A DNA stretch of 64,000 bases, taken from Schmidtea nova (taxonomy: Eukaryota). The notes beneath the pieces are model-generated. The model had not been told where the DNA came from and did not search any database. It was given only the letters and a program-made list of their open reading frames with translations. Location of the stretch: the NCBI GenBank assembly GCA_044892505.1, contig CM097884.1, forward strand, positions 129,022,001 to 129,086,000, given 5' to 3'. Made by a program: the position numbers and the translations under genes. Below are positions 9,865 to 64,000 of the stretch, one piece after another (the first letter of the stretch is position 1; every line of letters begins with the position of its first letter).

Positions 9865-11251
9865 CCCCGGCCTGCCAAAAGTTTCCAGTCAGGTAGTTAT
9901 TTACATATCGCAATTTATAATGAACGTCTGTAGTGTAAATATGAACAGTAATGGGAACAAATGTCACAAACACACACGAATACTGAATGTCTGTAGTGCT
10001 AAGAAAGTTAGTACTTCGTTATATTACCTTACATATGGATAACAAGGCGCACTCGTTTAGACATTGTATCCATCACTTTTGTCAGGAAATCAAGGGAGAT
10101 GTGTGACTATTCCTCATGCAGATGCGTTTCCAGTTCGGAGGAGTTACGGGCAATTGGAATCCTTTTGCGTACTCGTCTACCAAGGACGTCCCACATAAAC
10201 TCAATAGGATTCAAATCAGAGTTTTGTGGAACGCAATCCAAAACGTTAATGCTGTGCAACAGAAATAATTCTTTCATAATGTGCGAAGTATGGATTGGTG
10301 CATTATCCTGTTGGAAAATGAGCCCCTCAATTTCTGAGAGAAAGGGAACTAGCTCATTTTCCAGAATGGCACGGTATTCTACTGACATCATGTGATTGCT
10401 GCATTTTACTAGAGGGCCAGTTCCACGAGCTGAGAAAAGACTCCAAAACATGTTGAAGCTTCCTCCCTATTTCTCAGTTGGCTGAATGCAGTCAGGGTGA
10501 AATTGTTCTCCTTAAATGACGCCAGCAGAATTGCTGTCCATCAGATTTGAAAAGAGTGAAACGTGATTCATCATTCCAAATGACTGAGCGCCATTATTCT
10601 GCTGTCCAACTCCTTCTCTCCTGGTACCACTTCAAGTGACGACGACGAATTGTTTCTGTAATCAAAGGCTTCCTTGCTCAGTATCTGATATATGAACCAT
10701 TAAAATGTAATTCGCGATGAATGGTGGACATGCTGGCATGCACAGGGCCAGTGTTAAATGTGGACACTAACTTGGACAGGGGGAACCGACGATGAGCCAC
10801 CACAAGTCATTTCAGCTGCCGTTGTGTACGGATGCTCAGAAGTTTAGGGCGGCCTGAACGTTGCTTGTTGACATGTCTCTGCGCCTGGCGGTACTTCCTC
10901 AGGAAGTAGTTAATAGTTCCTTTGAAATGGCCAGTCAATGCAATAGTTTCACTCTGACATTTTCTACAAAGGTAACATCCGCAAATAATGCCTTTCTGAA
11001 AGTCTGTAAGCTCTCTCCGAGTAGCCATATTCTAAGAAAATGACAATCCTTCATTAACATGACTCACTGTTATCGCTGTTGTGTGTCTCGTGTGAGAAGT
11101 CATATTCTGTGTCTGTAAATGTGTGCATGCAGCATGTTGAAGGTGTTGGTGACCTTTGTTCCTATTGCTGTTCATATTTACACTGCAGACGTTCATTTTA
11201 AACTGGAATAGGTAAATAACTGCCCGGCTGGAGACTTTTGGTAGGACGGGG
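9865..11251 (-). mobile_element. Tc1-family (DD34E) transposon, decayed
   Basis: ~110-bp diverged TIRs (ccccggcctgccaaaagtttccag at 9865; ctggagacttttggtaggacgggg ending 11251, then TA). Encloses a broken transposase. Confidence 0.9.
10107..11028 (-). pseudogene. Tc1 transposase pseudogene
   Basis: HTH and GRPK in 10807-11028; WNDES (D1) near 10570; FQQDNAPIH...DLNPIEFMW with 34-aa D-E spacing in 10107-10451. Interrupted by stops and frameshifts. Confidence 0.9.
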
Positions 11252-17687: not shown

Positions 17688-17746
17688 TGTAGTGCCTCTA
17701 CTTTATGCATATTTATAATATCCTATATATACTAAATTTAAATATC

Positions 17747-17777
<31 letters not shown>
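17688..17777 (+). repeat. Gypsy 5' LTR, left fragment ending in (TATC)n
   Basis: Similar to 39461-39515. (TATC)n runs 17743-17777 up to the Polinton terminus. Confidence 0.75.
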
Positions 17778-17778
<1 letters not shown>

Positions 17779-19160
17779 GTAGTAGGATGTGAGCGCATCA
17801 GATATAGGTCAAGACCCCCCCCCCCTAGAAAAAAAAAAAAAAAAAAAAAATTTTTTATGTAGGTCGATTTAAGGTCAAATTTTTTATGTAGGTCGATTTA
17901 AGGTCAAATTTTTCGCTTAAGGACACTTTAAGGACACTTTAAGGTCAAATTTTTCGCTTAAGGTCATTTTAAGGACACTTTAAGGTCAAAAAAGTATGTC
18001 AAGGTCGTTTTAAGGACATTTTAAGGTGATTTTAAGGTCAAATTTATGGTTTAAGGACACTTTAAGGACAATAAAGTAGGTCAAGGTCGTTTTAAGGACA
18101 CTATAAGGTCAAAAAGAATGCCAATTTAAGGTCACGATAAGGACAAATTAAGTAGGTCAAATATTTTTAAGGTGATTTTAAGGTTAAAATAAGTAGGTCA
18201 GATATAATTTTCAAATTTTTTCTATGTCAGAAAAAAGTAGGTCAAATATTTTTAAGTTGCTATGACAACGAATAAGTAGGTCAACTTTATTTTTTTTTAA
18301 ATTTGCTAGTTGCTATGACAACGAATTAAGTAGGTCAATAATAATTTTGAAAATTTTTCTATGTCAGAAATAAGTAGGTCAACTTTATTTTTTCAAAAAT
18401 TATTCTATGTCAGAAATAAGTAGGTCAAATATAAAAAACTTGAAAATTTTTCTATGTCAGAATTAAGTAGGTCAAATATAAATACTTGAAAATTTTTCTA
18501 TGTCAGAAATAAGTAGGTCAACTTTATTTTTTCAATAATTTTTCTATGTCAGAAATAAGTAGGTCAACTTTATTTTTCTCAAAAATTTTTCTATGTCAGA
18601 ATAAAGTAGGTCGATTTAAGGTCATGATGAGGACAAAATAAGTAGGTCAATAATTTTCAAAAAAGTAGGTCAAATATAAATACTTGAAAATTTTTCTATG
18701 TCAGAAATAAGTAGGTCAACTTTATTTTTTCAAAAATTTTTCTATGTCAGAAATAAGTAGGTCAACTTTATTTTTCTCAAAAATTTTTCTATGTCAGAAT
18801 AAAGTAGGTCGATTTAAGGTCATGATGAGGACAAATTAAGTAGGTCAATAATTTTCAAATATTTCTAAGTAGGTTAATAATTTCTGTATATGGCTATCTT
18901 ACGTGTGTGTATGTTTTTAATAAGGATAATAGTATGCATTGAACGCGCGTTTCACGCGCGTTCTTCTCCTGTTATTGTTTAAGACAAATAACAGTACTCA
19001 TTGAACGCGCGTGAAACGCGCGTTCTGCTTCTCTTGTTGTTTAAAATAAATAACAGTACGAATTTTCTAAGTCAGAAAAAAGTAGGTCAACTAGATAATT
19101 TTCTATGTCAGAATTATGTAGGTCAAATATAAAAACTTTAAAATTATTCTATGTTAAAAA
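17778..19160 (+). repeat. Polinton left TIR (at least 1383 bp; inner end in gap 19161-19513)
   Basis: Reverse complement of 33499-34759. Made of tandem ~10-46 bp units containing AGGTCA/AGGACA/ATGTCA. Confidence 0.95.
18941..19025. other. Pair of 23-bp hairpins with mutually inverted loops in the TIR
   Basis: GAACGCGCG-TTTCA-CGCGCGTTC (18941-18963) and GAACGCGCG-TGAAA-CGCGCGTTC (19003-19025). Mirrored in the right TIR at ~33634-33718. Confidence 0.9.
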
Positions 19161-19649
19161 NNNNNNNNNNNNNNNNNNNNNNNNNNNNNNNNNNNNNNNN
19201 NNNNNNNNNNNNNNNNNNNNNNNNNNNNNNNNNNNNNNNNNNNNNNNNNNNNNNNNNNNNNNNNNNNNNNNNNNNNNNNNNNNNNNNNNNNNNNNNNNNN
19301 NNNNNNNNNNNNNNNNNNNNNNNNNNNNNNNNNNNNNNNNNNNNNNNNNNNNNNNNNNNNNNNNNNNNNNNNNNNNNNNNNNNNNNNNNNNNNNNNNNNN
19401 NNNNNNNNNNNNNNNNNNNNNNNNNNNNNNNNNNNNNNNNNNNNNNNNNNNNNNNNNNNNNNNNNNNNNNNNNNNNNNNNNNNNNNNNNNNNNNNNNNNN
19501 NNNNNNNNNNNNNAAAAATAATAATATAAATAATAATATTAACAACAAAATATATTTTCTAAGTCGGAAAATTTATTGAAACAAAAGCCGAAAATAATAT
19601 TTTTCATATAATAATGTTGATGATGTGATGAAATTGAATAAAGCCAAGA

Positions 19650-22600
19650 TTAAGTTCTTTCAAAGGGATCAGCCCATTCACCGAAATCGTACGGATCATC
19701 GGTATAGTTATTTGACTCATTGATTTCACTTGATAATTCATCCGGTAATTGATTCGGTGGAATGTTATCGTCATAGGTTCTAGCATTGATTCCTAAATAA
19801 TGACCAAATGCGAGACTTGCATTTCTCCCCACCCATTCGCGCTTGTCGTCATTATTGCTAAGAGCTATTTTTGTATTTTTTATCGTATAAAGCTGGTGAT
19901 TTTTAGTTCCTATACGCGTTTGAGGAACAGTTATTATCCGGTCATTTAGATAGCAGTCAAGATAAGATTGATGTTTTATTTCAGTCTCGCCAAGTGTAAT
20001 CCCTTTGGCTTTGTTATATTCAGCATCACCAAGAAGACTATAACATTTAGGACGCAAGAAAACCCATTCCTCATATCTATGACCTTTACTTTCATCCTTA
20101 AATTTCCCTATAACAGAGTCGAGACGTCGTGAATATAATGGATGGTCTGGATCATAGTTTGATGTATCTAAAAGATCATCAGAAATCATAGCTGGTAAGA
20201 GAACATCAAGTTTACAGTGTCTAACCTCAAGAAAGAACGAGTCAGTGTCGCCAGCGACAATTCCTATCTTACAATCAAAGAGGTCCCTATATTTCTGCAA
20301 TTCAATATATTGCAGTTGATACATCCGCAGCTTAGATAGATCTAGTACCGTTTGACCGATATAACTAGGTCTATCTAAGCATATTAAATCTTTATTCAGA
20401 TGTGCTGCAATCAGATCGTCATCAATTTTGATGGACTTTCTGAAAGACGGCTTTGAAGCATATATAATCATCTTTTCAGATGAATTACATAATCTCAAAT
20501 TCATCCGTTTTTTCAGATTTTCGACGGATTTACCATATAGGCTATTATTATTGAGTTTAAAATAATTTTTATCGAGTTTATTGGTAGAGTTTGCTCTTAA
20601 CTGAGTATTCGTATCGATGTAAGCCTTAAAGATTTTCGATTGCTTAAATCTAATCGCTCTATGAATTTTAACTACCTGAACCCCAAGAGAAACAAACATC
20701 TTCAACAGTCTCCAATGTATGACATAGTTATACTTCGGATAATGTGTAAGCATTAACTTGTCAACTTTCGAACCTGGTGGGCACATCTTTTCCGGAGCAA
20801 CAGGGAAATCATCCAAAAACACATGCATGTTTTCAGGAACAATGATATCAACTTCCATAGTGTAACCATATGAAAGATTATCAATATCCGTCGACATGCA
20901 TTCGGTCAAGATATTATCAAGATCATTATGTACCCACCTAAAATCACCAAAAGGAAGATTTTGGCTAAGAGCCCAACCATATAGATTATTAATATCTATA
21001 TATAAAAGCTCAGTGTCATCATCAGTCTTTACATACTTTTTGTTGACGAATGTCAAACCACCCCGTATTCCTCCCTCATAGAAATTATACATTTCCATGT
21101 CTTGAAGGAGTTCAATGGGTTCCTTCAAAGTCATCAAAGCAGATGCCCAACTCATACCGGGAATACCATAAAAATTTAAGGGATCTAAGCCATTGTGAGC
21201 AATGGACTTAGCTCGAAATTGTTGAAAGTAATCCGCTAGAAGAAATACATCCAACTTTAGATAAACCTTCATATAGTCTAACAAGTTGACACAATTATTT
21301 TCAGTCCAAATTTGTTGAGCTCGTAAATAATCAGTCTCAGACACCTTAGCCCAAATCGGAGGCAATTCAAGAGTGGATTCTAGGACTTCAAGACTCGTAG
21401 CAAAATTAAAAGGGAAAATACCCTTACAATCCATAATTGAACCAGTGAAAACTGAAGATGTTAAGGGAAAAACTGACAGAGTTTTAACCGCATTATCTAA
21501 AGACTCTGATACAAATTGATAACTGTCAATAAACCTAACAGCAAGTTTATCAATGTGAGCTATAAGAGAAATAAATTTCTCTGTAGTAGTCGGAATAATA
21601 TTTAATTTCCAAGATGAACAATCAGACAGACCATACTTCAAAATGTGATGTAGGTCATAACCTTTCAAATTATGAAAAATAACAGGTAAGTGTTTTCTAA
21701 TTCTACGGGAAATATTACAAATGTTGCAAGCAGCGCCAAGATATCTACCAGAAAAGTGATCGTGATCACGAACTCTATTTCTAATTGGTTTCTTACATAA
21801 ATAACAATTTGAACAAGTCCTAAAAGCTTCCTGCTCAGCAAATGATAAAGGCCCTAATGGAGTATTTCCGAATAAATCATAATACGGGAGTACTATTGTG
21901 ACAGCAATTTCCTCCACTTTCTTTAAAAATTCTAACACACATTCAAGACCTATAAATTCATAATATGATTTTGAATTATTTAAATTATTTAAAAGTAATA
22001 GACCTGCTGATATCGGTAAATGTTTTTGGTGATACCTGTCATCACCCGGTAAAATTGACTCAAAGTCAGCATAAATTACGAAAGGTGGGGTTACGGTTTT
22101 GGAATAGTCCTTAAATTCTAAATATTTATTTTTTGGTAGACTATAAAGGGTTGCACCTATTTGATTATTTTTACATAAATTAAAATGCTTATCAAAGGTT
22201 TCCTGAATACGGAAACCGTTTAAACATCTGGGACACCATATCGACTGAATCCTATTGGTAACTGTACTATTTATACTACTGTTCATTAACCTTTGCAGAT
22301 TAATAACTGCAGTATAATGGAAAATTCCCTTATCTTCTAATAATAAAAGATAAATAGGGTTTAAATGATTTAATTTTGTGCGATGGATTATTTCCAAGTG
22401 GGGATGATGAGGAACATAATCATCATCTTCTATATCTATATTGTTATTTCTAATCACTTTAGGGTTATAAGATAGCACATTAATGGCTAAGCCAGGGTTA
22501 TTATTTTCGAATTTAGGGATATTGCATAATTTCATGGGACAGTCTTTTAAAGGGTCAAAAACTAAATCATTTAAATACGGTACATAACTCGAGGCTGAAC

Positions 22601-23630
22601 TATGATTATTAACGATTAAATTATATTTTGTTATAGCCAAAACACTATATATAAAACATAAATCATCTGAATTTTTTACATTTATAATTGCCCTTTTATT
22701 TTTTAATGGGTTAGGAGTTTCAAAATGTCCGTGGCCAGATAATCGATTCATGGTAGAAATTTTTGTCAAAATAAAATGGATTTCCATTATTTTATTAACA
22801 ATCCAGCCGCTACCCCGTTGTGTAAAATTTTCTATTTTATTATTTAATTTCCTAATGCTTTCTATTAAGAAATTATCTGAAAAGATCTCAGCTTTAGTGG
22901 ACAAAAATTCATTCTTAAAGACCCCATCTTTTTCAAATTCAATATTAAGGGCGAATTGAATTTTTACGTTCCCCATTTTGATAATTTCTTTATTTAACCG
23001 CACAGAAATTTTTTCTGTGACAGCAATTTGATTAATATTATGGGATTCGACATTAAAAGTTAACGAGCGTCGAGATCCCCTTAAGTCTTTTTCCACTACA
23101 GGCTCATCGTCGATATCAATAGATCCTCCTATTTGATTAATAATTTCCTCATCGTCGCTAATTATAATTACTTCTGGTTTATATTTTTTAGGTGCAATAA
23201 TTTTAATTTTATCAGCAGGTCTTTTCTTGATATTATTATTATTATTATTATTTATATTAATAATTTGAACGTCTGAATTATTTAATAAATTATTGAGTAA
23301 TTTATTCTTAGAAGAATTATCAACAGATACATTATTCGACGAAATTTTAACCGAAGACGATTTCTCAGCAGATACCTTATTCAAAGAAGTTGATTTCTCA
23401 GTAGATACCTTAATCGACGAAGAAGATTGATTTTTACATTTTTTAAAAATAAGTTTTTTCGATTTGAAAAATTGTGTAAGATGCTCATGATGTTTAGAAT
23501 AAAAATCAGAGTAGGGTAGGGATTGTGAAGTCTCACATTTTGGGCATATATAGTAATCAATGCCATTAAACTTCTGACGATAATAAACAGTCATGAGTTT
23601 GTGGCATTGAGTGCTGTGTCTACCTGACAT
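19650..23630 (-). CDS. Protein-primed family B DNA polymerase (pPolB), 1326 aa, with vOTU-like, zinc-finger and endonuclease-VII-like inserts
   Basis: Exo motifs IYADFES, FHNLKGYD, YLKLDV. Pol motifs YIDINNLYG, KLNNNSLYGK, GDTDS, FLRPKCY, KAKGI. OTU-like NSDDLCF...FHY. C2H2-like CPRCLNGF...KHFNLC. EndoVII-like CYLC...RDHDHFSGRYLGAACNICN. Confidence 0.97.
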   Translation of the reverse strand: MSGRHSTQCHKLMTVYYRQKFNGIDYYICPKCETSQSLPYSDFYSKHHEHLTQFFKSKKLIFKKCKNQSSSSIKVSTEKSTSLNKVSAEKSSSVKISSNNVSVDNSSKNKLLNNLLNNSDVQIININNNNNNNIKKRPADKIKIIAPKKYKPEVIIISDDEEIINQIGGSIDIDDEPVVEKDLRGSRRSLTFNVESHNINQIAVTEKISVRLNKEIIKMGNVKIQFALNIEFEKDGVFKNEFLSTKAEIFSDNFLIESIRKLNNKIENFTQRGSGWIVNKIMEIHFILTKISTMNRLSGHGHFETPNPLKNKRAIINVKNSDDLCFIYSVLAITKYNLIVNNHSSASSYVPYLNDLVFDPLKDCPMKLCNIPKFENNNPGLAINVLSYNPKVIRNNNIDIEDDDYVPHHPHLEIIHRTKLNHLNPIYLLLLEDKGIFHYTAVINLQRLMNSSINSTVTNRIQSIWCPRCLNGFRIQETFDKHFNLCKNNQIGATLYSLPKNKYLEFKDYSKTVTPPFVIYADFESILPGDDRYHQKHLPISAGLLLLNNLNNSKSYYEFIGLECVLEFLKKVEEIAVTIVLPYYDLFGNTPLGPLSFAEQEAFRTCSNCYLCKKPIRNRVRDHDHFSGRYLGAACNICNISRRIRKHLPVIFHNLKGYDLHHILKYGLSDCSSWKLNIIPTTTEKFISLIAHIDKLAVRFIDSYQFVSESLDNAVKTLSVFPLTSSVFTGSIMDCKGIFPFNFATSLEVLESTLELPPIWAKVSETDYLRAQQIWTENNCVNLLDYMKVYLKLDVFLLADYFQQFRAKSIAHNGLDPLNFYGIPGMSWASALMTLKEPIELLQDMEMYNFYEGGIRGGLTFVNKKYVKTDDDTELLYIDINNLYGWALSQNLPFGDFRWVHNDLDNILTECMSTDIDNLSYGYTMEVDIIVPENMHVFLDDFPVAPEKMCPPGSKVDKLMLTHYPKYNYVIHWRLLKMFVSLGVQVVKIHRAIRFKQSKIFKAYIDTNTQLRANSTNKLDKNYFKLNNNSLYGKSVENLKKRMNLRLCNSSEKMIIYASKPSFRKSIKIDDDLIAAHLNKDLICLDRPSYIGQTVLDLSKLRMYQLQYIELQKYRDLFDCKIGIVAGDTDSFFLEVRHCKLDVLLPAMISDDLLDTSNYDPDHPLYSRRLDSVIGKFKDESKGHRYEEWVFLRPKCYSLLGDAEYNKAKGITLGETEIKHQSYLDCYLNDRIITVPQTRIGTKNHQLYTIKNTKIALSNNDDKREWVGRNASLAFGHYLGINARTYDDNIPPNQLPDELSSEINESNNYTDDPYDFGEWADPFERT

Positions 23631-24330
23631 GTTGCAATATTTAGGGTATAGAGAGCCTGAATATACAGGAGAAAATTATAAAATGTTTATTATTATTATT
23701 ATTAAAATAGAATATAAAATTAAAATTATACAAATAAAATTGAATTAAAATAGTATTATAAAATATTTGTACATTATCTCGATTTCATCGTGAGATAACG
23801 TAAATTATTATTATAAAAATAACTTGAAATAGTAAGTTTAAAATATTTGAAGAAATATTATAGTAACGAATTTACTATGATATGTCTTGAAATATCTTAA
23901 ATAGTTTAAAATTATTAAAATAATATCATAAATTATTTNNNNNNNNNNNNNNNNNNNNNNNNNNNNNNNNNNNNNNNNNNNNNNNNNNNNNNNNNNNNNN
24001 NNNNNNNNNNNNNNNNNNNNNNNNNNNNNNNNNNNNNNNNNNNNNNNNNNNNNNNNNNNNNNNNNNNNNNNNNNNNNNNNNNNNNNNNNNNNNNNNNNNN
24101 NNNNNNNNNNNNNNNNNNNNNNNNNNNNNNNNNNNNNNNNNNNNNNNNNNNNNNNNNNNNNNNNNNNNNNNNNNNNNNNNNNNNNNNNNNNNNNNNNNNN
24201 NNNNNNNNTAGTAAAATTATTATTATTAATATTAAGAAAATCATTTATTACATATTATAAAATTATTAATTATATATTATAAAATTAAAAAAGTATTTCA
24301 AAATGCTATAAAAATAGAATAAAAACTTAC

Positions 24331-24816
24331 ATTTATCAGATTCATTTTCATTCAAAATATCATCATCATCCGAAATATTATATATTTCCTCCGAATTCTT
24401 TTGCATATCTTCATCATTATTATTATTAAATTGTTTCGACGATTTTCTACATTCGTCATTATTTTCTAAAATAATTTCTAAAATAACAATATATAATATT
24501 AAATAATAAATTACCATTAGTATATTCGGCATCAATATCAGCGGGAAAAATGCGTCCGCGTTGGTCTATCGGTCTGAATAAATTTGATTTAACTTGTCGA
24601 ATTTCTAAAATTTTAAATTTTAAAAAATATATTTAAAATAAAAATAAATACCATTTTGCCCTAAAACAATATTTACTGGGGCTTCATACTTCAACTTGGA
24701 ATCATTCGAAGCTGCTGAAAATTGAAATAATTTAAAGATAATATAATAAAATAAAAAATAAAATTACCCATGGCGGCGACATTCTTCTTTGTTATATTTT
24801 TAATATTATTCAGCAT
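24331..24816 (-). CDS. Spliced Polinton gene (4 or more exons, 3' part in gap), possibly the 5' exons of pPolB
   Basis: Exons 24816-24768, 24714-24652, 24604-24515, 24477-24331. GT-AG introns of 53, 47 and 37 nt, all phase 1. Joined frame is open: MLNNIKNITKKNVAAMAASNDSKLKYEAPVNIVLGQNEIRQVKSNLFRPIDQRGRIFPADIDAEYTNEIILENNDECRK...DK. Next donor GTAAGT at 24330. Confidence 0.65.
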
Positions 24817-24896
24817 GTTGATTGAGAGATTTTAATTAAATTGAATGCAATAGTAAAATTGGTTGTTAAAAAGTGATGAAAAATGAAAAGATAGTG

Positions 24897-25100
24897 TATA
24901 TAACTAAAATTATTCAACGGTTATTAACCGGCCAATCAAATACGTTTTAGGTGAGAGAAATATACGCACACATATATTTCTTTATGGTTATTACACTGAC
25001 GTGTTTATAATACTAGTATGTGTGTCAATATAACATATGATGTCATGTCAGTTTCCATGTGAATTCATAAAGACATGTGAGTTCATGACCTCTGACGTCA
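24897..25100 (-). promoter_or_regulatory. Putative Pol II promoter of the spliced gene/pPolB
   Basis: TATATA at 24897-24902, CCAAT at 24932-24936, CRE palindrome TGACGTCA at 25093-25100. Short motifs in AT-rich DNA. Confidence 0.35.
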
Positions 25101-25218
25101 TTGTCGACTTTATCTAGTCTTTGTTAACTTTGTTAGTTTGCAAATAATAATATTCATTAAATAATAATAATAAAAGACATTAATACAATGAAATAAATTT
25201 ATTGAAATAACAATATAT

Positions 25219-25605
25219 TTATGACTTTAAATAATCTATAACACTACGCAAACATTCTTTATAGGCACACATACTATGGTCTCTATAGGGACAAGAAATA
25301 TTATCTGGAACATCTTCAATTTCTTTTAAATTATATTTGATTAGTCTCAAAGTGGGAAAATATTTCTTCAAAGCAATAAGTTTATCCATATCTGTGACAT
25401 AGAAAATAGCATTACTATCTTCAATATCTTTCATAATACATATTGGACAAAAGTAATCTTCCTCCTCATACCACTCACTACAAACTTTATTATATATGTA
25501 ATATTTAGGTCTAAAAATATTATTAACGTTTATAATACATAATTCATTAATAATTAATCTTCCATTATTGTAAATTCCTATAAAATCAATAAAATAACAA
25601 GTCAT
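25219..25605 (-). CDS. Polinton accessory protein, DEDD/DnaQ- or Maelstrom-like fold with C-H-C motif (~128 aa)
   Basis: N-terminal FIDFIG...IINELCII pattern and C-terminal CPYRDHSMCA. Start at 25605 preferred because the longer ORF overlaps the protease. Confidence 0.5.
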   Translation of the reverse strand: MTCYFIDFIGIYNNGRLIINELCIINVNNIFRPKYYIYNKVCSEWYEEEDYFCPICIMKDIEDSNAIFYVTDMDKLIALKKYFPTLRLIKYNLKEIEDVPDNISCPYRDHSMCAYKECLRSVIDYLKS

Positions 25606-25637
25606 TTTTATACTAAATTTTATTTTTATTAAATTGT

Positions 25638-26020
25638 TTATACATTTAACATGGATAATAACCATGCAAGACAATGTTGACCACAAGTAATTGTTAATGG
25701 ATGTTGATATCGAATTCTATTGTATACAATCGGTTTACCCAAAGTTTGCAATTTACTAACTAATAAATTGGGATAATAACATCCAAATGGATCAAATGCA
25801 TATATTCGATCTGGTTTAACGTAAACAGCAATCCAATGTTCACCACCCAAAGTAGATGTCTGAGTATTTACGATGATAGCTTGATTAACATCCATATAAG
25901 GAATTTTATCTAAGGGATAAACTCCAATAAATTGATTTCCCAATAATTTTTTGCCAAGTCTATATACCTGAATTGAACTAATTTAATTAATTATTTTTAC
26001 AAATTAAAATCTTACTCCAT
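25638..26020 (-). CDS. Adenain-like cysteine protease (spliced, ~114 aa)
   Basis: GEHW, FDPFG and Q...CGQHC catalytic motifs. Exon ATGGA (26020-26016) plus a 38-nt GT-AG intron (26015-25978) gives MDSIQVYRLGKKLLGNQFIGVYPLD. The track ORF starts at an internal TTG. Confidence 0.9.
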
Positions 26021-26111
26021 GATAATTTTACTATAGTGATTTGGTTCATTTATACTATAAGAGTTCAAATCAGTGATGTTTGAGCTCAAACTAATAATGT
26101 TTGAGCTCTGC

Positions 26112-27332
26112 TCAAACCAATACTGTTCGATTTGCAGTAATTTGGATTTCATTTTCAAAAACTCCATATATTATTACATGAACCGGTTCCTCAATGGCTT
26201 TACCAAATTTGATATCTAATCGTAAATTTCCATTTTGAGGGATTTGACTTTGATTCAAATCGAAATCAGGAGCAAGAACAAACGTAAAGAATGGATAACT
26301 AGATTTAAATTCATCTAGACTTATACCACAATTCAAGTTTTTATCCAAATATCCTAAATTCCGGACAAGACTTTGCATATATGTGGCACTAAAATTATCA
26401 TTTTCAAAATCTTGATTATAAGTTTCCCGATAATCAGTATTTTTTGACAGAGATAATGATGTTACATTGAAATGTTTGAATGTAGATGAAGAAGCAGAAT
26501 AAGATCCGTTATATTGATTTTCAGTTTGAAAAGCTACAAGAATGAAATTAGGCATTCTTCTATCTCCAAATATTTGCTCCTTGTAAAATGATGATGCCCC
26601 TTTACCGATTGCAAAAGATACAATTTCTTTTGATTTTATCGGATAAATTGCATGTTTGTTATTTAATCCAATTTGATGTCCAGCTAATACTGAAGATTCA
26701 CATCGAACTCTTCGTACCATTAATTTTGCATCTACTATTTGTATTATTGGTTTCCCAGCTGTAGATGCCAATGATAATGCAGAATCAGATCTCTTCAATC
26801 TAATATGTACATTAACTCCCGGAAGTAAATATTTAGGTTGATCCAAAAAATCTAGTTGTAATGATGAACACATGTTGAAAAGTTTCGATCCTTTAATCCA
26901 CTTTTTTCTATCGTCAGATGCGCCGTATCCCATTGGAGTAAGACAAGTTTCTTTTGCATCACTAGTATAATTTAAAATAGTTTCAATTATTGCCTTGTGT
27001 GCATATGTATTGTTTCCACCCTCAACTTTTATATTATTAAATCCAAGAATTGCATCTTTGAAAAGTGTATGAAACAGGTAATTATTAGGTACTACATCAC
27101 TAGCATCAGCTAATTGTTTTTTATCTTTATCTACAACTTTGACAGTAACGGATAATAAAGTATCATTTAAATCTAAATATTCGGTTTGTGAACCGTTAAT
27201 GTAAAATTCGATATCATTTCTACTATCTGTAATGGAATTCATTGGAAACACATCTTCAAACACCCCATATTCAATAACTGCTTGGGGAGATGGTCGATCA
27301 AAAAGACATAATTCAGATTTACCGCAAATCAT
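26112..27332 (-). CDS. Major capsid protein (double jelly-roll, Polinton PY/hexon-like), 406 aa
   Basis: Characteristic N-terminus KSELCLFDRPSPQAVIE...IEFYINGSQTEYLDLNDTLL and C-terminus GNLRLDIKF...VYGVFENEIQIT, plus size and position. Confidence 0.9.
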   Translation of the reverse strand: MICGKSELCLFDRPSPQAVIEYGVFEDVFPMNSITDSRNDIEFYINGSQTEYLDLNDTLLSVTVKVVDKDKKQLADASDVVPNNYLFHTLFKDAILGFNNIKVEGGNNTYAHKAIIETILNYTSDAKETCLTPMGYGASDDRKKWIKGSKLFNMCSSLQLDFLDQPKYLLPGVNVHIRLKRSDSALSLASTAGKPIIQIVDAKLMVRRVRCESSVLAGHQIGLNNKHAIYPIKSKEIVSFAIGKGASSFYKEQIFGDRRMPNFILVAFQTENQYNGSYSASSSTFKHFNVTSLSLSKNTDYRETYNQDFENDNFSATYMQSLVRNLGYLDKNLNCGISLDEFKSSYPFFTFVLAPDFDLNQSQIPQNGNLRLDIKFGKAIEEPVHVIIYGVFENEIQITANRTVLV

Positions 27333-27694
27333 TCTTCAAATATAGTTCCATGTCCTTTCATTCGATTGTTTATACGCTTTCTACCTTTTTTACGTTTTGG
27401 TTCTACTGGTTCAGGTTCTGGTTCATTTTTTGTAAACATATTTGTAATTGAAGGAATCGCTTTTGAAACAGCATCCATAGCATTCGTTTTCAATGAAGGC
27501 AATATTTTTTGGTCTTTCATGATAACATCTCTAGCAGTTTTCATTCCAAAACTACCTAGTCGTTTAAGAATTGGAAGTGCAAATCTACCAATAGTTTTCA
27601 ACCAACCTGATCCATACTGCTTACCTACAAAATACGGTAATTCACCACCGGTTTGGCTATTACTATACAATGAAATTATATCGGGATTACTCAT
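27329..27694 (-). CDS. Putative virion core protein with QxGG/QxGxG maturation sites, 121 aa
   Basis: SQTGGE, KQYGSGW, amphipathic helix, basic tail KRKKGRKR. Overlaps the MCP and penton ORFs. Confidence 0.65.
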   Translation of the reverse strand: MSNPDIISLYSNSQTGGELPYFVGKQYGSGWLKTIGRFALPILKRLGSFGMKTARDVIMKDQKILPSLKTNAMDAVSKAIPSITNMFTKNEPEPEPVEPKRKKGRKRINNRMKGHGTIFEE

Positions 27695-28733
27695 TTAATT
27701 TACGAAAATGTAATGTCAAATGTGTTTTTGAATCTTTTGGAAAATTTATTAATTTACCACTATCGTCACGTATATTTATTTCTATATTGTTTATACATGA
27801 GGTAGAAATAGGTAAGTACATTGGATTATCCATTACTATTTGTACAACTTCATCCTGTTCATATTTTTCGATCCATACAGATTTCAGTAGAGGAACCAGA
27901 GAATCACCGACAATTATTGGTTCAATAATGTTACTGTAAATGAACATTTGTTGATGATGAACAAGTATTTTAGGTTTCACAGTCCCATCGATAAGGTTTC
28001 GGTCTCTATACGTTTGTTTAGCTAATCCTAAAGTATTGACCAAGTTTTTATCAAATGTAACTTCACTAATATTATCATTGAGACAGAATTGGAACCATTT
28101 ATTAATCTCTAGAGTTTTAAAGATATGGGAACAATTGAATGATAAATATTTAGATAAATCTTCCAATTGTACTATATACAAATCATTTGCAAATGTAAAT
28201 GTATCTTCAATTTCTGCCTCATAAGATATTGTCACCGTAATATCTTCTTTCAAATAACTATTCGGTTCAAATAATATGAACTTTAATTGATATTCTTTTA
28301 GTGTACTCACAATTTTAAGTTGATTACTTCCCATTCGCTTGGCTTCTTCAATATTTTTAAATGTAATTGTATATGGAGTAAAATCACAATTAATATTTAA
28401 ACAACCATTGCTGAAATACATACTACAATGAACATTCAAATTTTGGTTAGGAATATTATAAATTCTTTCAAAATTGTTGATGATGAATAGACCACTGCAT
28501 GTTCTATTTTCAATTCTTTTGTAATCAATCTTACATTGACTATAAAATGGAAATGTATTGTACACAAACGTGAAATCTTGTAATGCAACTTCCCAATTAC
28601 CATCTAAATAAATTGGATTTTGAAGATTGACCATGAATTTACTGGCTTGATTGTCTGGATGTATTAGCGGACAGCTATTACTTGGTAATATAGTATAAAA
28701 ATTCACTTTACTAGGTTTTTTGACGATATCCAT
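27687..28733 (-). CDS. Minor capsid protein (penton-like, Polinton PX), 348 aa
   Basis: FYTILPSNS...FMVNLQNPIYLDGNWEVAL N-terminus and FIYSNII...VGDSLVPLL...YLPI...IEINIRDDSG C-terminus. Confidence 0.9.
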   Translation of the reverse strand: MDIVKKPSKVNFYTILPSNSCPLIHPDNQASKFMVNLQNPIYLDGNWEVALQDFTFVYNTFPFYSQCKIDYKRIENRTCSGLFIINNFERIYNIPNQNLNVHCSMYFSNGCLNINCDFTPYTITFKNIEEAKRMGSNQLKIVSTLKEYQLKFILFEPNSYLKEDITVTISYEAEIEDTFTFANDLYIVQLEDLSKYLSFNCSHIFKTLEINKWFQFCLNDNISEVTFDKNLVNTLGLAKQTYRDRNLIDGTVKPKILVHHQQMFIYSNIIEPIIVGDSLVPLLKSVWIEKYEQDEVVQIVMDNPMYLPISTSCINNIEINIRDDSGKLINFPKDSKTHLTLHFRKLNE

Positions 28734-29750
28734 GATGGTTCTTTATATCCATGCCACTTGACGTAGTATTGTTTATCTTTACCGACCATTTTAGTTTTCA
28801 ATATTTTTTGAATTCTAGATATTGTCGGAGGGGGAATAACTTGTAATTCTTGCTCATAGAATTTTCCACTGACTATATTGTTATCAGAATCAGAAATAGT
28901 ATACATGACAGGATTCTGGACTGTGTTGACTTTCGATATTTGAAATACCTCATCACTCCAATTACTATCAAAATTTTTAATGAATGGCGATGCGCTAATT
29001 TTACTAATTCGAACATGATCACCTATTTTATATTTTGGTTTCTTTATTTTTGTATCACTCAAAATATTTTCAGTATCAACTACTTCAGCAGGTTTCTTTC
29101 CATTTATACCTCGATGAGCAGAATGATTATAACTATGAATAATTTGTGGTAAAACATTAATCCATGTTTTATTCCCTTGATGCACAAAATACTTTTTGAG
29201 ACGATCTCGTAATGTACGATTAAATCTTTCAACATGAGCGGCTTTGAATTGAGAGAATACTGAGTAATGATTGATTCCCTTTATAATTTCTTTGACTTTG
29301 CTATTGTAAAATTCCTTACCTGGATAAATAATTATCATTATATAAAATATTTATTAGCTTACCCAAATCAGTTTGTAAATTAGTTGGACGATCCTGTTTC
29401 ATCATTGTTTTGATTGCGATTGCCATATCATTAGCAGATTTAGATTTTACTGGAATAGCTCGAGCGAAACGACTGTAAACATCAATACATGTTAAAATAT
29501 ACTTGTATCCCTTGTTAATTTTTGAATACGGAATCATTTCCATCAAATCCATTTGCCACAAATCATTGATTCTATATGTTTTATATGCTCGAGTCGGAAA
29601 CCGTTTCAGCATCGGTTTGTTTAGACTGTATGCAAGTTGCCCCGATAACCAACTTTGAGTCTGTTTTTTCGAATTCAATACATTTTTGCTTAGCTTTTCG
29701 ACTCCACCGAAACCTGCTTCGTGTTTTGGGTTGGTCCAAATCTTCTCCAT
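28703..29750 (-). CDS. Retroviral-type (rve) integrase with C-terminal chromodomain, spliced (~334 aa)
   Basis: The two track ORFs join through a 43-nt phase-1 intron (29362-29320), restoring QTDLG|KEF. DDE residues in WQMDL, QTDLG and VERFNRTL. Chromo-like QKIL...YYVKWHGY..PSWI. Confidence 0.92.
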
Positions 29751-29805
29751 TACAACAAGAAGATTTAAAGTTTAAATTAAGATTAGGCAATGATTGTCCC
29801 ATTGT

Positions 29806-30348
29806 TTATGACTGTTTTCCTAATAAACCAGCACCTCCTAATAGTGATAATGCTAATGGTAACAATGCTGCAATAAACCCTCCTTGTTGTTTATATATTA
29901 TTTTACGCATTAATTTTCTATTTTTGGTTTTTACAAGTGATAACAATGGTTTCTTGTGTTTGTTCAAAACTCTTCTATTAGATTCACTTATATTGATTTT
30001 ACCTCTAACAACTTTAATTAAAATCATTAGTAAATCGTCAATAACGTAATTAGGAAACGATTGTAAAATACTCATTCTTCTAATACTAGGGGCTTTAAGT
30101 AATGCGTTGAAAAATGGGAAACTACGATGATGTATTTGTTTTGGATTTGGTTTGTAAGTATTTTGAATACGATTACTTTTTGGGATATTATCAATAAGTA
30201 ATTTTTTAGATGGTGTATAACTGGTTTTTGAAACTGGTTTCTTTGTTTTCTTTGTAAATACTTTCTTTGAAACTAATTTCTTTCCCGGTTTCTTCATTTT
30301 TCTAGCCTTTATCAAGCGCTCAAACTTTACTCTAGATTTCATTAACAT
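29806..30348 (-). CDS. Lys-rich putative core protein with adenovirus pX/mu-like C-terminus, 180 aa
   Basis: Basic N-terminus; C-terminal QQGGFIAALLPLALSLLGGAG. Confidence 0.65.
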   Translation of the reverse strand: MLMKSRVKFERLIKARKMKKPGKKLVSKKVFTKKTKKPVSKTSYTPSKKLLIDNIPKSNRIQNTYKPNPKQIHHRSFPFFNALLKAPSIRRMSILQSFPNYVIDDLLMILIKVVRGKINISESNRRVLNKHKKPLLSLVKTKNRKLMRKIIYKQQGGFIAALLPLALSLLGGAGLLGKQS

Positions 30349-30368
30349 GATTGATAATATACATCTAG

Positions 30369-30992
30369 TTAACTTTGTTTATAAACCATGGCTCCTTCCT
30401 TGTTGAAAATATCGGTTCTAACTCTTAAATCATCACTACATTGTTGTGTGAAATCAAGAAAAAGATATCCATGAGGTGCTTTTGTGGCATCTTGGAATGC
30501 ATCAATCAAGAAATTACGATTAGAAGGGTATGCTTGTCTTGCAAGAAAATCAATCACTGTTGCGTCTCTAGGATTTTTAAAAACAACAAGATATTGAACA
30601 TTCAAATTACGAGTTCGATGACTACCGCCCTGATGAAATAAATTCTGAGTAATAAATATGACTGTAACACCTTTGTGTCTAGCGATTTTGGTAAATAAAT
30701 TATTAAAATCCTTTTCTTTATTTGCTTCTTGGTACAAATCATCAATAATAATCACATCCCCTTCTCTTAATCTAGATGACCAATTTTTATCGAAACCTTT
30801 TATTATAGTCATTTTTATTTTACAAAATTGATCTTGAGTCATTCCATGTTCATCATCCGCACCCCTATGCCAATAAATTTTATTAAACTTTGATTTAAAT
30901 AATTTTGATTGTAATAATTTACAAACAAATAAAGTTTTTCCACTACCGCTTGGTCCAACAATTTGAAACACTGCATCATTTCTTAATTCCAT
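30369..30992 (-). CDS. A32/FtsK-type genome packaging ATPase, 207 aa
   Basis: Walker A GPSGSGKT, Walker B IIIDD, and RHKGVTVIFITQNLF and FKNPRD motifs. Confidence 0.95.
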   Translation of the reverse strand: MELRNDAVFQIVGPSGSGKTLFVCKLLQSKLFKSKFNKIYWHRGADDEHGMTQDQFCKIKMTIIKGFDKNWSSRLREGDVIIIDDLYQEANKEKDFNNLFTKIARHKGVTVIFITQNLFHQGGSHRTRNLNVQYLVVFKNPRDATVIDFLARQAYPSNRNFLIDAFQDATKAPHGYLFLDFTQQCSDDLRVRTDIFNKEGAMVYKQS

Positions 30993-31008
30993 ATTTTTTA
31001 TTTTATTA

Positions 31009-31045
<37 letters not shown>

Positions 31046-31107
31046 GTTTATATTTGTTTTAAATAATAGTTTTAATTATTATTATCATATTTAAAAAATT
31101 TCCAGTA

Positions 31108-31575
31108 ATGATTAGCAACATAAATTATAAGGGTAAGACAGATGTATCACACATGAAATTTCCTAAGGGGAAACCACAACAAATTATTGATAGAAGTGGT
31201 AAATATCCGATAATATATTTTAAGACCGGGAGATTTAGAATTATGGGATGCAAGGAATTTATAAGTGATGAAAAAGTAAAGATTTATGATTTAACAATCC
31301 AATCGATTACTGTAACGACAGATTTAGGATTTATTTGTAATTTAAATGATTTGGCTAAATTACTAGAATGTGTTTATGAGCCTGAATTATTTCCAGCTTT
31401 GAGATATATAAAATATAATCCCATGTGTGTTAATATATTTGCAAGTGGTAAAATAGTTATATTAGGTTTAAAAGACAAAGACTATTTAAATATAGTTGAT
31501 AATATTATTACAGATATAAAATCAATTATTGAAGATAAAGCCTTTGTTGATTTCATATTATCGTGTGACTCATGA
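31108..31575 (+). CDS. TATA-binding protein (TBP)-like protein, 155 aa
   Basis: The second repeat TIQSITVTTDLGF..NL..LA...YEPELFPAL.Y...P....IFASGKIVILGLK aligns by eye to TBP repeat 2 (KIQNMVGSCDVKF..RL..L...YEPELFPGLIY...P....IFVSGKVVLTGAK). The first repeat is degenerate (SNIN...YFKTGRFRIMGCK). Confidence 0.88.
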   Translation: MISNINYKGKTDVSHMKFPKGKPQQIIDRSGKYPIIYFKTGRFRIMGCKEFISDEKVKIYDLTIQSITVTTDLGFICNLNDLAKLLECVYEPELFPALRYIKYNPMCVNIFASGKIVILGLKDKDYLNIVDNIITDIKSIIEDKAFVDFILSCDS

Positions 31576-31610
31576 TTGCAAATAAGATGCAAAAGAAATG
31601 CACGATTCTG

Positions 31611-31716
31611 ATTGGTTCAGTGTGTATTTCAATAATAAAGACATATTATACATACTCGAATCTGATTTGTTGATTGTGTGTTTCAATTTCTTGTGTGTTA
31701 CTTTGGTATATATATA
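31611..31716 (+). promoter_or_regulatory. Putative CCAAT + TATA promoter
   Basis: ATTGG at 31611-31615 and TATATATA at ~31707-31716, ahead of the ATG at 31750. Confidence 0.3.
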
Positions 31717-31749
31717 GAATGAATATTTTTCATTCATTATAATTTTACA

Positions 31750-32700: not shown

Positions 32701-32826
32701 ACATGATAAATAAAGTTGATAAACACATTAATTAAACACACAAGCATACATACAACAAAGACACACACATACATATGCATGCAAACAAAGACATGCAGTC
32801 ATAGTGCAATACAAATGCATGATTTT

Positions 32827-32896: not shown

Positions 32897-33313
32897 ATGC
32901 CAGCACGTAAATCAACTTATGACATCAGTGAAGAAAGAAAAATCAATAATGAAGTGAAACCAGTACAAATGTATTACGATTACAAAATTTATTTCCTGGT
33001 TCAAGAAATACCATTTCGTTTATCGTATCCAGTTAAATTAACAAAGTCATTGTATGATAATTTAGCCGCAAATCTAAGTAAAGAAGATGTTGTTGCACTG
33101 AATAAAGTTTTATTCAAAATCAATAACAATTTAAGCTGCAAGGAAACTATATGGATCAACAATCGAAAAACCCGTTTCCATGATGCTTTCCAATCTATCG
33201 AATACAAGGATCAAGAAAATTGGTTTATTACCATAATCATTCAGGGTTATAAAATCGATACCAAAGATGTTATAACTCCAATTTGGAGAATCGACAGTGC
33301 ACGATATACATAA
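32897..33313 (+). CDS. Orphan Polinton protein, 138 aa (possible OB-fold ssDNA-binding protein)
   Basis: Clean ORF with promoter motifs. Beta-rich C-terminus WFITIIIQGYKI...ITPIWRI. The function is inference only. Confidence 0.55.
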   Translation: MPARKSTYDISEERKINNEVKPVQMYYDYKIYFLVQEIPFRLSYPVKLTKSLYDNLAANLSKEDVVALNKVLFKINNNLSCKETIWINNRKTRFHDAFQSIEYKDQENWFITIIIQGYKIDTKDVITPIWRIDSARYT

Positions 33314-33498: not shown

Positions 33499-34759
33499 TT
33501 TTTAACATAGAATAATTTTAAAGTTTTTATATTTGACCTACATAATTCTGACATAGAAAATTATCTAGTTGACCTACTTTTTTCTGACTTAGAAAATTCG
33601 TACTGTTATTTATTTTAAACAACAAGAGAAGCAGAACGCGCGTTTCACGCGCGTTCAATGAGTACTGTTATTTGTCTTAAACAATAACAGGAGAAGAACG
33701 CGCGTGAAACGCGCGTTCAATGCATACTATTATCCTTATTAAAAACATACACACACGTAAGATAGCCATATACAGAAATTATTAACCTACTTAGAAATAT
33801 TTGAAAATTATTGACCTACTTAATTTGTCCTCATCATGACCTTAAATCGACCTACTTTATTCTGACATAGAAAAATTTTTGAGAAAAATAAAGTTGACCT
33901 ACTTATTTCTGACATAGAAAAATTTTTGAAAAAATAAAGTTGACCTACTTATTTCTGACATAGAAAAATTTTCAAGTATTTATATTTGACCTACTTTTTT
34001 GAAAATTATTGACCTACTTATTTTGTCCTCATCATGACCTTAAATCGACCTACTTTATTCTGACATAGAAAAATTTTTGAGAAAAATAAAGTTGACCTAC
34101 TTATTTCTGACATAGAAAAATTTTCAAGTTTTTTATATTTGACCTACTTATTTCTGACATAGAATAATTTTTGAAAAAATAAAGTTGACCTACTTATTTC
34201 TGACATAGAAAAATTTTCAAAATTATTATTGACCTACTTAATTCGTTGTCATAGCAACTAGCAAATTTAAAAAAAATAAAGTTGACCTACTTATTCGTTG
34301 TCATAGCAACTTAAAAATATTTGACCTACTTTTTTCTGACATAGAAAAAATTTGAAAATTATATCTGACCTACTTATTTTAACCTTAAAATCACCTTAAA
34401 AATATTTGACCTACTTAATTTGTCCTTATCGTGACCTTAAATTGGCATTCTTTTTGACCTTATAGTGTCCTTAAAACGACCTTGACCTACTTTATTGTCC
34501 TTAAAGTGTCCTTAAACCATAAATTTGACCTTAAATTCACCTTAAAATGTCCTTAAAACGACCTTGACCTACTTTTTTGACCTTAAAGTGTCCTGAAAAT
34601 GACCTTAAGCGAAAAATTTGACCTTAAAGTGTCCTTAAAGTGTCCTTAAGCGAAAAATTTGACCTTAAATCGACCTACATAAAAAATTTGACCTTAAATC
34701 GACCTACATAAAAAAAATTTTTTTTTTTTCTAGGGGGGGGGTCTTGACCTATATCTGAT
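33499..34759 (-). repeat. Polinton right TIR (at least 1261 bp; both ends in gaps)
   Basis: Reverse complement of the left TIR, with about 3 substitutions and two fewer ~46-bp units. Confidence 0.95.
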
Positions 34760-62478: not shown

Positions 62479-62596
62479 TAAATTTTTTTCTCTGTTTTAT
62501 TTAAAACTAGCTGAGAAAATTATAATTTCCCGGCGAAAAATGTTGAAAATTTTCTACTTATTAGTATAAGCTGTTTAAAATTTGATTTTATTTCAG

Positions 62597-64000
62597 ATGT
62601 CGGTTCGACAAATATTGTACATTATTTCCATATTTCTGATTGACTTTGCGTTGTCGGATAATTGTCCGAGCGTCTGCCAAGAAATGGCATGCAAAACAGG
62701 AATCCTTACTTGCCCAGACGGAGGACTGAAAAGTATTCCTGAGCATCTGCCTGCCTCGACAACAAAAGTGTTATTAGTCGGTCACATATTTGACAATCCG
62801 CAATTAAGTGGGGCTAACTTCACGAATTACGCCGCATTTAACATTGCTAAACTCACCTTGCTTAATTGTTCCATCAACTCAATTGAGCCGTACACTTTTT
62901 ACCACATGACTCAACTGCAAACTCTCGATTTGTCGAAAAATAAAATCAAACTTATTAAGCCGAATACTTTCCGTGGTTTAACTCTCAGTTTTCTCAGATT
63001 GGATGAAAATAAAAACATTGAGCTGAGAAAGAATTCGTTTTCCGGTTTAAAAGTAAAGAAATTAAGCCTCAATGACTGTGATCTGAATGAGCTGAACTAC
63101 GATAGCTTTGCGGATTTGATTGGCAATTTAGAGAGGCTGACTCTAACGCAAAACAATTTGCGCATAATTGACTCGAAATTCACCAACATATTCCGCTCTC
63201 TGGTAGAATTAGAGTTGAACAACAATCCGTTAGATTGTTCCTGTGATATGAAATGGCTTTCAGGAGTTTTGAGGTATCGTCAGACCATCCAGAAAGACAA
63301 AAAGAAGGATGACAATCTCGCTCGGTGTGCTACACCGCCGGATTTGACGAATAAACTGATTCATTTGTTAAATGATTCGAGTTACATTTGCGGAACCCCG
63401 AGTTTGGTGGAGCTTGACTTGTTTATTCTCTCAAATGACAGTGCTAAATTGAGTTGCGTCACGGCTAGAAATCAGAACTCTCGAATCATGTGGCATTTCT
63501 ACGACAAAGACGGCTATAGGATCTTTCCGAATTCTATGTCTCAGATGTACAATTCAACTATTAAAATCAAACGAAAATACCAGACCGATAAATATTTCTG
63601 TTCAGCTCACAATCTGAACGGCAATTCAACAATCGAAATCCGAATCAAATGGCCGCAATTCTATCACAGAACCACTTACTATCCAACGGGTGTAAATAAA
63701 AAACTCCCCCATCCTTCATATGACAAAGATTTTTTCTTCCAACGGCAATTCACGCTGTTGGAAATGATCGGCGGAGTCGTCGGAACATTCACCGGAACTT
63801 TGTTGTTGTTTCTGTTGATTTATCGATGCTTCATTCAAAAGCACCGGAAAGAAAGTCGGAAACGAAAATTGTATGAAACGGTAATCTATTCCGACTCTCA
63901 AACCTATGACATTCCACACCAGCCTTATTATCCGATTCATGCCTACCAAACCAGTCCAGCACATTATTTAGATTTCAAAAATCCACAATTGGTTAACAAT
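62597..64000 (+). CDS. Host LRR + Ig-domain type I transmembrane protein (ORF runs off the window, at least 468 aa)
   Basis: ATG directly after a splice acceptor (tttcag). Signal peptide; LRRNT (CPSVC..C...C); ~6 LRRs (LQTLDLSKNKI, LERLTLTQNNL); LRRCT (NNPLDCSCDMKWL...C..P); Ig (LSC..W..YFCSAHN); TM (MIGGVVGTFTGTLLLFLLIY); basic stop-transfer and Tyr-rich tail. No stop in frame; missing from the ORF track. Confidence 0.92.
   Translation, partial: MSVRQILYIISIFLIDFALSDNCPSVCQEMACKTGILTCPDGGLKSIPEHLPASTTKVLLVGHIFDNPQLSGANFTNYAAFNIAKLTLLNCSINSIEPYTFYHMTQLQTLDLSKNKIKLIKPNTFRGLTLSFLRLDENKNIELRKNSFSGLKVKKLSLNDCDLNELNYDSFADLIGNLERLTLTQNNLRIIDSKFTNIFRSLVELELNNNPLDCSCDMKWLSGVLRYRQTIQKDKKKDDNLARCATPPDLTNKLIHLLNDSSYICGTPSLVELDLFILSNDSAKLSCVTARNQNSRIMWHFYDKDGYRIFPNSMSQMYNSTIKIKRKYQTDKYFCSAHNLNGNSTIEIRIKWPQFYHRTTYYPTGVNKKLPHPSYDKDFFFQRQFTLLEMIGGVVGTFTGTLLLFLLIYRCFIQKHRKESRKRKLYETVIYSDSQTYDIPHQPYYPIHAYQTSPAHYLDFKNPQLVNN

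Follow-up and report, generated by a model that had tools for sequence, protein, structure and literature searches.

The window, the whole 64,000-nucleotide stretch of Schmidtea nova DNA that we analyzed, contains a mobile element of about 17 kb, in which sequence at 17.8 to 19.2 kb pairs as an inverted repeat with sequence at 33.5 to 34.8 kb. We found a Polinton gene set between these terminal inverted repeats (TIRs), which bears out the original prediction that the region is a Polinton TIR. The first gene encodes an open protein-primed DNA polymerase B (pPolB) of 1,326 aa (19650..23630, minus strand) that reads toward the left TIR. It has 585 relatives, many of them annotated with PF03175, and the window pPolB itself had no match to PF03175 at an E value of 0.01. 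Weak zinc-ribbon matches lie at its N terminus. Also on the minus strand, we infer by eye a probable small multi-exon gene with short introns (24266..24820), which is followed by a 148-aa ORF (25219..25665) with a relative in the related locus L126 and by an adenovirus-type protease (Peptidase_C5, E value of 1e-5; 25638..26020). The 406-aa major capsid protein (26112..27332, minus strand) is double jelly roll (DJR)-like (E value of 4e-4, below the cut-off) and has an Atlas score of 0.98 to a cluster in which 15% of the members carry PF21738; no capsid relatives were found in viral_contigs or phages. The next ORF (348 aa; 27687..28733, minus strand) has no Pfam match and, judging from its position, is a probable minor capsid protein. 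Two further minus-strand features are a retroviral-type integrase with a chromodomain, which occupies two ORFs (rve, E value of 8e-9; 28703..29750), and an A32-like packaging ATPase (Pox_A32, E value of 3e-6; 30369..30992). The plus strand carries a TATA-binding-protein (TBP)-like ORF (PF00352, E value of 2e-14; 31108..31575) and a 138-aa ORF (32897..33313) that reads toward the right TIR and for which all matches in an Atlas search were under 0.9. Four ORFs, of 138, 148, 172, and 180 aa, have no family. When the ORFs of the element were compared with nuclear receptor and other DNA-binding families at an E value of 0.01, none matched except TBP.

Judged by its pPolB, rve integrase, ATPase, protease, DJR-like capsid, and AG(T)-starting TIRs, the element is a Polinton/Maverick (adintovirus-like), a group with which it shares these genes and the AGT-starting TIRs. 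It differs in that its TIR consists almost entirely of receptor-type half-sites. The two integrase ORFs are separated by an apparent 43-nt GT-AG intron. Short GT-AG introns would agree with the division of the integrase into two ORFs and with the shortness of the protease ORF, and the protease probably starts on a short upstream exon. The likely short spliceosomal introns are at 29320 to 29362 (integrase) and at about 25980 to 26015 (protease), on the minus strand. Four related loci (L044, L051, L056, and L059) apparently have short introns at the 5' end of pPolB too. The TBP-like gene may point to element-directed transcription. TBP-like genes are also present in three related Polinton loci (L126, at 2029 to 2415, L064, and L061) and appear in the figure key of PMC8502044. 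The read depth of single contigs inside the element was tens to hundreds of times that of the unique flank in three runs; these depths, which are not copy numbers, indicate that the element belongs to a multi-copy family. At the right edge of the window lies a host gene for an LRR-Ig membrane protein (62579..64000, plus strand). Among named relatives, the best match comes from Schmidtea mediterranea (39% identity, E value of 8e-90), and the next named match has an E value of 5e-15. By this one gene, the host is very probably a triclad-like flatworm.

The left TIR (17778..19160, plus strand) starts with AGTAGTAG and is at least 1,383 bp long, near the top of the range of 100 to 1,500 bp given for Polinton TIRs in PMC10748475. 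The visible part of the right TIR spans 33499..34759 on the minus strand, and N gaps at 19161 to 19513 and 33365 to 33498 conceal the inner limit of the repeat. Excluding the terminal homopolymer runs, the two TIRs differ by three substitutions, one 1-bp gap, and one 92-bp block, by which the right TIR is shorter and which corresponds to two 46-bp units. A probable right end, AGTA, is found just past an N gap (34918..34921, minus strand). We found no target site duplication of 5 to 8 bp: the flanking 6-mers on the left and right differ, and the right junction abuts the N gap. The scaffold may be misjoined at the right junction and may join two element copies. A (TATC)n run (17743 to 17777) immediately precedes the element and shows no matching target duplication with the right flank (34918 to 34935).

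According to the original prediction, the left TIR holds about 18 matches to WAWNTRGGTCA, the RORE pattern, and about 9 TTAAGGTCA-class sites, all on one strand. The counts came out at exactly 18 (13 TAAGTAGGTCA, 4 AAAGTAGGTCA, and 1 TATGTAGGTCA) and exactly 9, all on the plus strand. Hexamers within one mismatch of AGGTCA numbered 62 on the plus strand and 0 on the minus strand. They comprised 29 AGGTCA, 12 ATGTCA, 10 AGGACA, 6 AGGTCG, 2 AGGTGA, 2 AGGTTA, and 1 AAGTCA, so that the predicted variant half-sites AGGACA, AGGTCG, and ATGTCA are all present. The right TIR mirrors this on the minus strand, with 17 RORE-type and 9 TTAAGGTCA sites pointing inward. Neither motif occurs in the element interior (19515 to 33000), and the flanks (about 47 kb) hold one WAWNTRGGTCA and no TTAAGGTCA. 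In 1,000 dinucleotide shuffles, a background suggested along with the prediction, the mean was 0.056 RORE (maximum, 1) and 0.135 TTAAGGTCA (maximum, 2). Half-sites were separated by 5 nt in 18 of 63 spacers, by 9 nt in 12, and by 0 nt in 2. As direct-repeat half-sites we counted 10 TAAGGTCA and 8 TAAGGACA, and there were 18 DR5 pairs. The ERRE-type pattern TNAAGGTCA had nine matches, all with T at N; TCAAGGTCA was absent from the left TIR, and TCAAGGTCG occurred twice.

The two classes occupy different zones, again as predicted: 7 of the 9 TTAAGGTCA sites lie within 17869 to 18126, nearer the terminus, and 17 of the 18 RORE matches in the left TIR lie at or beyond 18149. The first AGGTCA half-site (17806..17811, plus strand) is 29 to 34 nt from the element end. 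It is followed by a terminal zone (17861..18186, plus strand) of (T)TAAGG(T/A)CA, AGGTGA, and AGGTCG half-sites in an 11-bp register, mostly as DR5, in which two DR0 pairs produce TCAAGGTCG at 17999 and 18081. The inner zone (18190..18876, plus strand) consists mostly of 46-bp units and includes two 198-bp higher-order copies. Each 46-bp unit has a weak half-site (ATGTCA or ATGACA), 9 nt, and then the RORE-type site WAWGTAGGTCA. Two more inner units with RORE-type sites are found at 19069..19125 (plus strand).

The array also contains palindromes. The imperfect palindrome GTTGCTATGACAAC (18256..18269, plus strand; second copy at 18309 to 18322) resembles the RFX X-box consensus; its strict form occurred in none of 115 related loci. 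Between the inner zone and the last inner units are two 62-bp units (18926..19064), each with a GC-rich palindrome that has ACGCGCGT arms and a 3-nt center (z of -9.1). Their centers are mutually inverted (TTC and GAA). The two palindromes resemble flip/flop hairpin forms and are able to pair with each other. Inside the element, a noncoding half-site palindrome (IR0; 25080..25100) is one mismatch from AGGTCATGACCT and adjoins a perfect TGACGTCA. This IR0/TGACGTCA site is upstream of the probable multi-exon gene, where CCAAT and TATA-like words also occur. As motif matches, the X-box-like and GC-rich palindromes and the IR0 site would suit a compound regulatory region.

Because the TIR is made of tandem units, the motif copies are not independent, and the significance in the shuffle comparison is overstated. 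The tandem periods are nested (11, 29, 41/82, 46, 62, and 198 bp); therefore, the comparison speaks to nonrandomness and not to function. All motif copies may descend from one seed. One explanation to be weighed is neutral amplification, by which an AGGTCA seed was expanded by slippage and homogenized between the TIRs, the motif serving as recombination homology and needing no binder. The nested periods agree with it, as do the 92-bp difference in unit number between the TIRs and the joints between repeat units, of which there are hundreds among the family copies. Such joints are expected from unit slippage, and slippage can preserve a motif while shuffling its flanks. Against it, the 5' extensions differ by unit type, and each is receptor-like.

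We looked for constraint on the motif with a test anchored on TAGGT alone, which gave 18 distinct contexts. Position -4 was A in 18/18, -3 was W in 18/18, -5 was W in 17/18, and +7 was A in 17/18; +8 was conserved in only 7/18. Positions -6, -5, and -3 varied between A and T, and G at -2 was more fixed than WAWNT requires. The WAW extension was kept at 23 of 24 TAGGT sites, which also argues against a neutral origin. Slippage in A runs and recombination at the motif that the units have in common could produce a similar pattern. At about 28 bp, the conserved block of the 46-bp unit exceeds the footprint of a single monomer. Among family copies, 1 of the 17 TIR variant positions that appear among the 40 listed of 185 fell inside a hexamer. 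Hexamers make up 29% of the bases, and repeats cross-map. This sole hexamer variant was a change to AGGTCA, a form also found in the right TIR.

As a third test of constraint, we compared the TIR with 115 related loci collected by polymerase similarity. Most of these are short contigs without ends, and several closely related ones, which have an assembly prefix in common, are not independent. Clusters of at least two ROREs within 250 bp were found in 2 of the 115 loci, L059 and L128; 400 permuted motifs gave 0.10 such loci on average (P = 0.005). Five patterns were tried in all, of which RORE was the one chosen beforehand. In the same 115 loci the total RORE count was at chance (13 versus 12.1), and clusters of TAAGGWCA, TAAGGTCA, and TNAAGGTCA were not enriched (P of about 0.2). 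L059 has three ROREs with TCAAGGTCA, CCAAT, and TATA upstream of pPolB. In L128, a tandem RORE triple separates divergent ORFs; the TIR of this locus contains no RORE. At candidate termini of related elements, chosen because they start with AGT or show an inverted repeat, an array was found at 0 of 7, and 6 of the 7 had no RORE in the first 600 bp. TBP-bearing L126 has a single antisense RORE about 37 to 47 nt from its AGTAGT end. The comparison with related Polintons called for in the original prediction was thus divided: arrays of this kind do not recur at the seven candidate termini, but RORE clusters recur near genes in two loci. We detected no DNA similarity to this TIR in the first 81 of the related loci, L059 among them. 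That RORE clusters occur in two distant loci with no detectable DNA similarity to the TIR speaks against neutral amplification. We found that some other related loci carry arrays of unrelated words in noncoding DNA, each with its own motif (L052 at about 1430 to 2170, L053 at about 340 to 680, L079 at about 3560 to 4050, L096 at about 10900 to 11150, and L098 at about 900 to 1350), as would be expected if such arrays arise neutrally. A phage collagen-like gene makes the same point, since its coding repeat produces a dense one-strand AGGTCA/AGGACA array without receptors. Each of the three tests (TAGGT contexts, copy variants, and related loci) is modest. The conservation pattern and the recurrence in two related Polinton loci would fit a bound site, and we consider a purely neutral origin unlikely.

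Two other sets of clusters were set aside. L090 has RGGTCA/TGACCY clusters in both orientations and away from its end and was not counted, and the clusters of L076 sit in apparent host repeat DNA. A scan of viral_contigs for paired motifs returned 41 stretches, none shown to be a Polinton end, and the richest proved on inspection to be coding repeats. L126 and L128 are near-complete Polinton-like elements. L048 (2358 to 2645) and L059 (1 to 284) have common noncoding blocks, one of them inverted, that flank pPolB and may mark one family. The 34 loci L123 to L156 are polymerase relatives inside prokaryotic MAG records, probably as binning contamination.

The identity of the inner motif as a RORE held up letter for letter, both against the core of standard RORE reporters and against a Bmal1 RORE. 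The core TAAGTAGGTCA binds RORgamma and has been used in 4x and 6x reporter arrays and in pull-downs (PMC6443933 and PMC6330298), and AAAGTAGGTCA is a Bmal1 RORE (PMC3479213). One site in the TIR has AGGTTA, the half-site of the other Bmal1 RORE. The factors assigned to these sites in the original prediction, ROR/Rev-erb (HR3/E75) and ERR, fared less well. We used the receptor set of S. mediterranea as a proxy for the host. For Schmidtea, the published survey of flatworm receptors (PMC8363021 and PMC11637366) lists no ROR, Rev-erb/E75, E78, ERR, or GCNF; it lists three TRs, NR1a, NR1b, two RXRs, TR2/4, two COUP-TFs, two NR4As, FTZ-F1, HR39, and four receptors with two DNA-binding domains (2DBD). 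The same sources report that ROR/HR3 and Rev-erb/E75 are missing in all flatworms analyzed and that ERR is missing in S. mediterranea and present in Macrostomum. Because ROR and Rev-erb are both absent from the Schmidtea list, the predicted competition between activator and repressor lacks its participants, provided that the proxy is sound. We also dropped the idea of an ecdysone or circadian loop for the reported absence of its receptors in flatworms. The suggested coupling to a hormonal, circadian, or germline program found no support in the analysis. The receptors first named for these sites are probably wrong.

Better candidates are available for both zones. For the inner 46-bp units, the most likely candidate is NR1b (nhr-10), which is HR3-like. 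By its DNA-binding domain it is the flatworm receptor nearest to HR3/ROR, yet it falls outside that group. Its P-box is CEGCKG. In the tapeworm Echinococcus, the NR1b orthologue, there termed HR3, has a GRIP-box extension, which is used in monomer binding (PMC5625357). For the terminal run, the nine TTAAGGTCA matches exist as predicted, but their reading as ERR/SF-1-type sites is weakened by their second position, where ERR favors a C that they lack (PMC5476932). In their 11-bp register, TTAAGGTCA and the eight TAAGGACA look more like TR-type half-sites in DR5. NR5A shares the ERR preference for C. The optimal octamer for TR is TAAGGTCA. PMC3110202 prints this octamer with seven letters. In schistosomes, TRalpha binds both DR0 to DR5 probes and a probe with a TAAGGTCA half-site (PMC2045677). 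TR orthologues would thus be better candidates for the terminal 11-bp TAAGG(T/A)CA array, and RXR, COUP-TF, TR2/4, and FTZ-F1 are further candidates for this run. We put the likelihood that a classical nuclear receptor of the host binds the TIR, in whatever role, at somewhat better than even.

The reader of the array might instead be a protein of the element. The pPolB N terminus, the integrase, or one of the ORFs of 138, 148, 172, and 180 aa would then bind iteron-like sites that organize the ends for replication, excision, or packaging, and the receptor likeness would be a coincidence. The single orientation, the 11-bp (helical-turn) register beside the end, and the presence at both ends are in keeping with such sites, and the ORFs without a family and the weak zinc-ribbon matches at the pPolB N terminus offer possible binders. 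Subterminal arrays bound by element proteins occur in other transposons, such as the TnpA sites of CACTA elements and the TIRs of Foldback/Galileo. There too, oriented short repeats fill long terminal regions; the difference is that the binder is an element protein there, and here such a binder would be hypothetical. However, all 11 nt of the extended site for a known class of receptors are matched, the RORE clusters of relatives are at internal promoter-like places and not at ends, and none of the element proteins looks like the DNA-binding domain of a receptor. We regard an element-encoded reader as quite unlikely.

Host receptors could also assist protein-primed replication, or else end pairing and packaging, as cofactors, with transcription not the main role. 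NFI and Oct-1 act at the auxiliary origin in the adenovirus ITR, and COUP-TF acts at the packaging A-repeats. The two systems are alike in having host factor sites in a terminal repeat of a protein-primed linear DNA element. They differ in factor class and in scale, with a few sites in about 50 bp there and about 60 half-sites over 1.3 kb here. By analogy, the position of the first half-site, 29 to 34 nt from the end, would suit an adenovirus-type auxiliary origin, and the lone RORE near the L126 end lies at a comparable place. No inward-reading ORF begins beside either TIR, which is also compatible with a cofactor role. In contrast, the array extends over 1.3 kb, far past a minimal origin; the L059 and L128 clusters are at internal promoter-like places; and ROREs are missing from the first 600 bp of six of seven related candidate termini. 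A mainly replicative or packaging role is very unlikely in our estimation.

The 28-bp conserved block covers two half-sites, which raises the further alternative that another kind of host factor reads the array: a two-DBD receptor on an unequal DR9 (ATGTCA-n9-AGGTCA), a zinc finger protein, a TALE homeodomain protein, or RFX, possibly as a host silencer. The region of 46-bp units contains TGTCA/TGACA cores and the two X-box-like palindromes. An element would not, however, be expected to amplify a pure silencer site. Schmidtea has four 2DBD receptors with a unique first P-box (PMC8363021, PMC11637366, and PMC1810520). The schistosome receptor 2DBD-alpha failed to bind AGGTCA repeats with spacings of 1 to 6 nt, a series that did not include DR9 (PMC1810520). 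Readers of this kind seem highly improbable.

The reading that we prefer is that the TIR is a compound array of sites for host factors, mainly nuclear receptors, which was amplified and selected as an enhancer or chromatin switch. From the sequence evidence assembled here, we give it slightly less than an even chance. According to this model, tandem duplication would have amplified the site array and selection would have retained it. The inner WAWGTAGGTCA units would have as their reader an HR3/ROR-type receptor that binds as a monomer, most likely NR1b, and the terminal TAAGG(T/A)CA run of DR5 and DR0 pairs would be read by TR orthologues. Because both TIR-adjacent ORFs read toward the TIRs, the array would work at a distance on internal promoters and not as a core promoter, an argument that holds unless the N gaps conceal something. 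Expression, and hence copying, of the element would be limited to cells or states with active receptors. A more specific version, in which the TIR is a zoned sensor with NR1b/HR3-like sites inside and a TR-type tip and in which RORE control recurs in animal Polintons at promoters or ends, is possible and rather doubtful.

That viral enhancers and terminal repeats carry sites for host factors is well established. The glucocorticoid response elements (GREs) of MMTV, the RAREs of the cytomegalovirus immediate-early region, and the HBV enhancer, with its RFX and receptor sites, are proven and lie directly upstream of a promoter. Like these, the TIR has tandem sites for host receptors in a terminal or enhancer region that could tie the element to host cell state; unlike them, it has neighboring ORFs that point into the array, and its function is putative. 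Multimerized RORE reporters and the ROREs of the Bmal1 promoter share with the TIR identical 11-nt words placed head to tail; here, however, the array is a natural one, with 18 copies inside a mobile element, and the lineage is reported to have neither ROR nor Rev-erb. We found no published description of receptor site arrays in Polinton TIRs in the literature searched, which mostly excluded subscription papers and Repbase. The excerpts of PMC8502044 and PMC10748475 describe TIR length and gene content and mention no TIR motifs.

A TIR made almost wholly of receptor-type sites, belonging to a family that is multi-copy and has open genes, bears on what activates animal Polintons and in which cell types. 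It provides a concrete hypothesis for planarians, namely, that the element may sense the state of the host cell through its terminal sites. If this is true, a host switch is named for an animal Polinton, flatworm receptors (NR1b, TRs, and possibly two-DBD receptors) have natural high-copy targets, and the many insertions could spread enhancers that respond to receptors across the host genome. Should the array prove neutral, it would be a warning not to take motif arrays within tandem repeats for functional ones.

Two other mobile elements are present in the window to the right of the Polinton. A Tc1/mariner-type (DDE_3) element (43817 to 45319) has TIRs of 125 bp with 100% complementarity and encodes an open 400-aa transposase. 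The region from 37191 to 39251, judged from its translations, appears to be a degraded reverse transcriptase region resembling that of an LTR retrotransposon.
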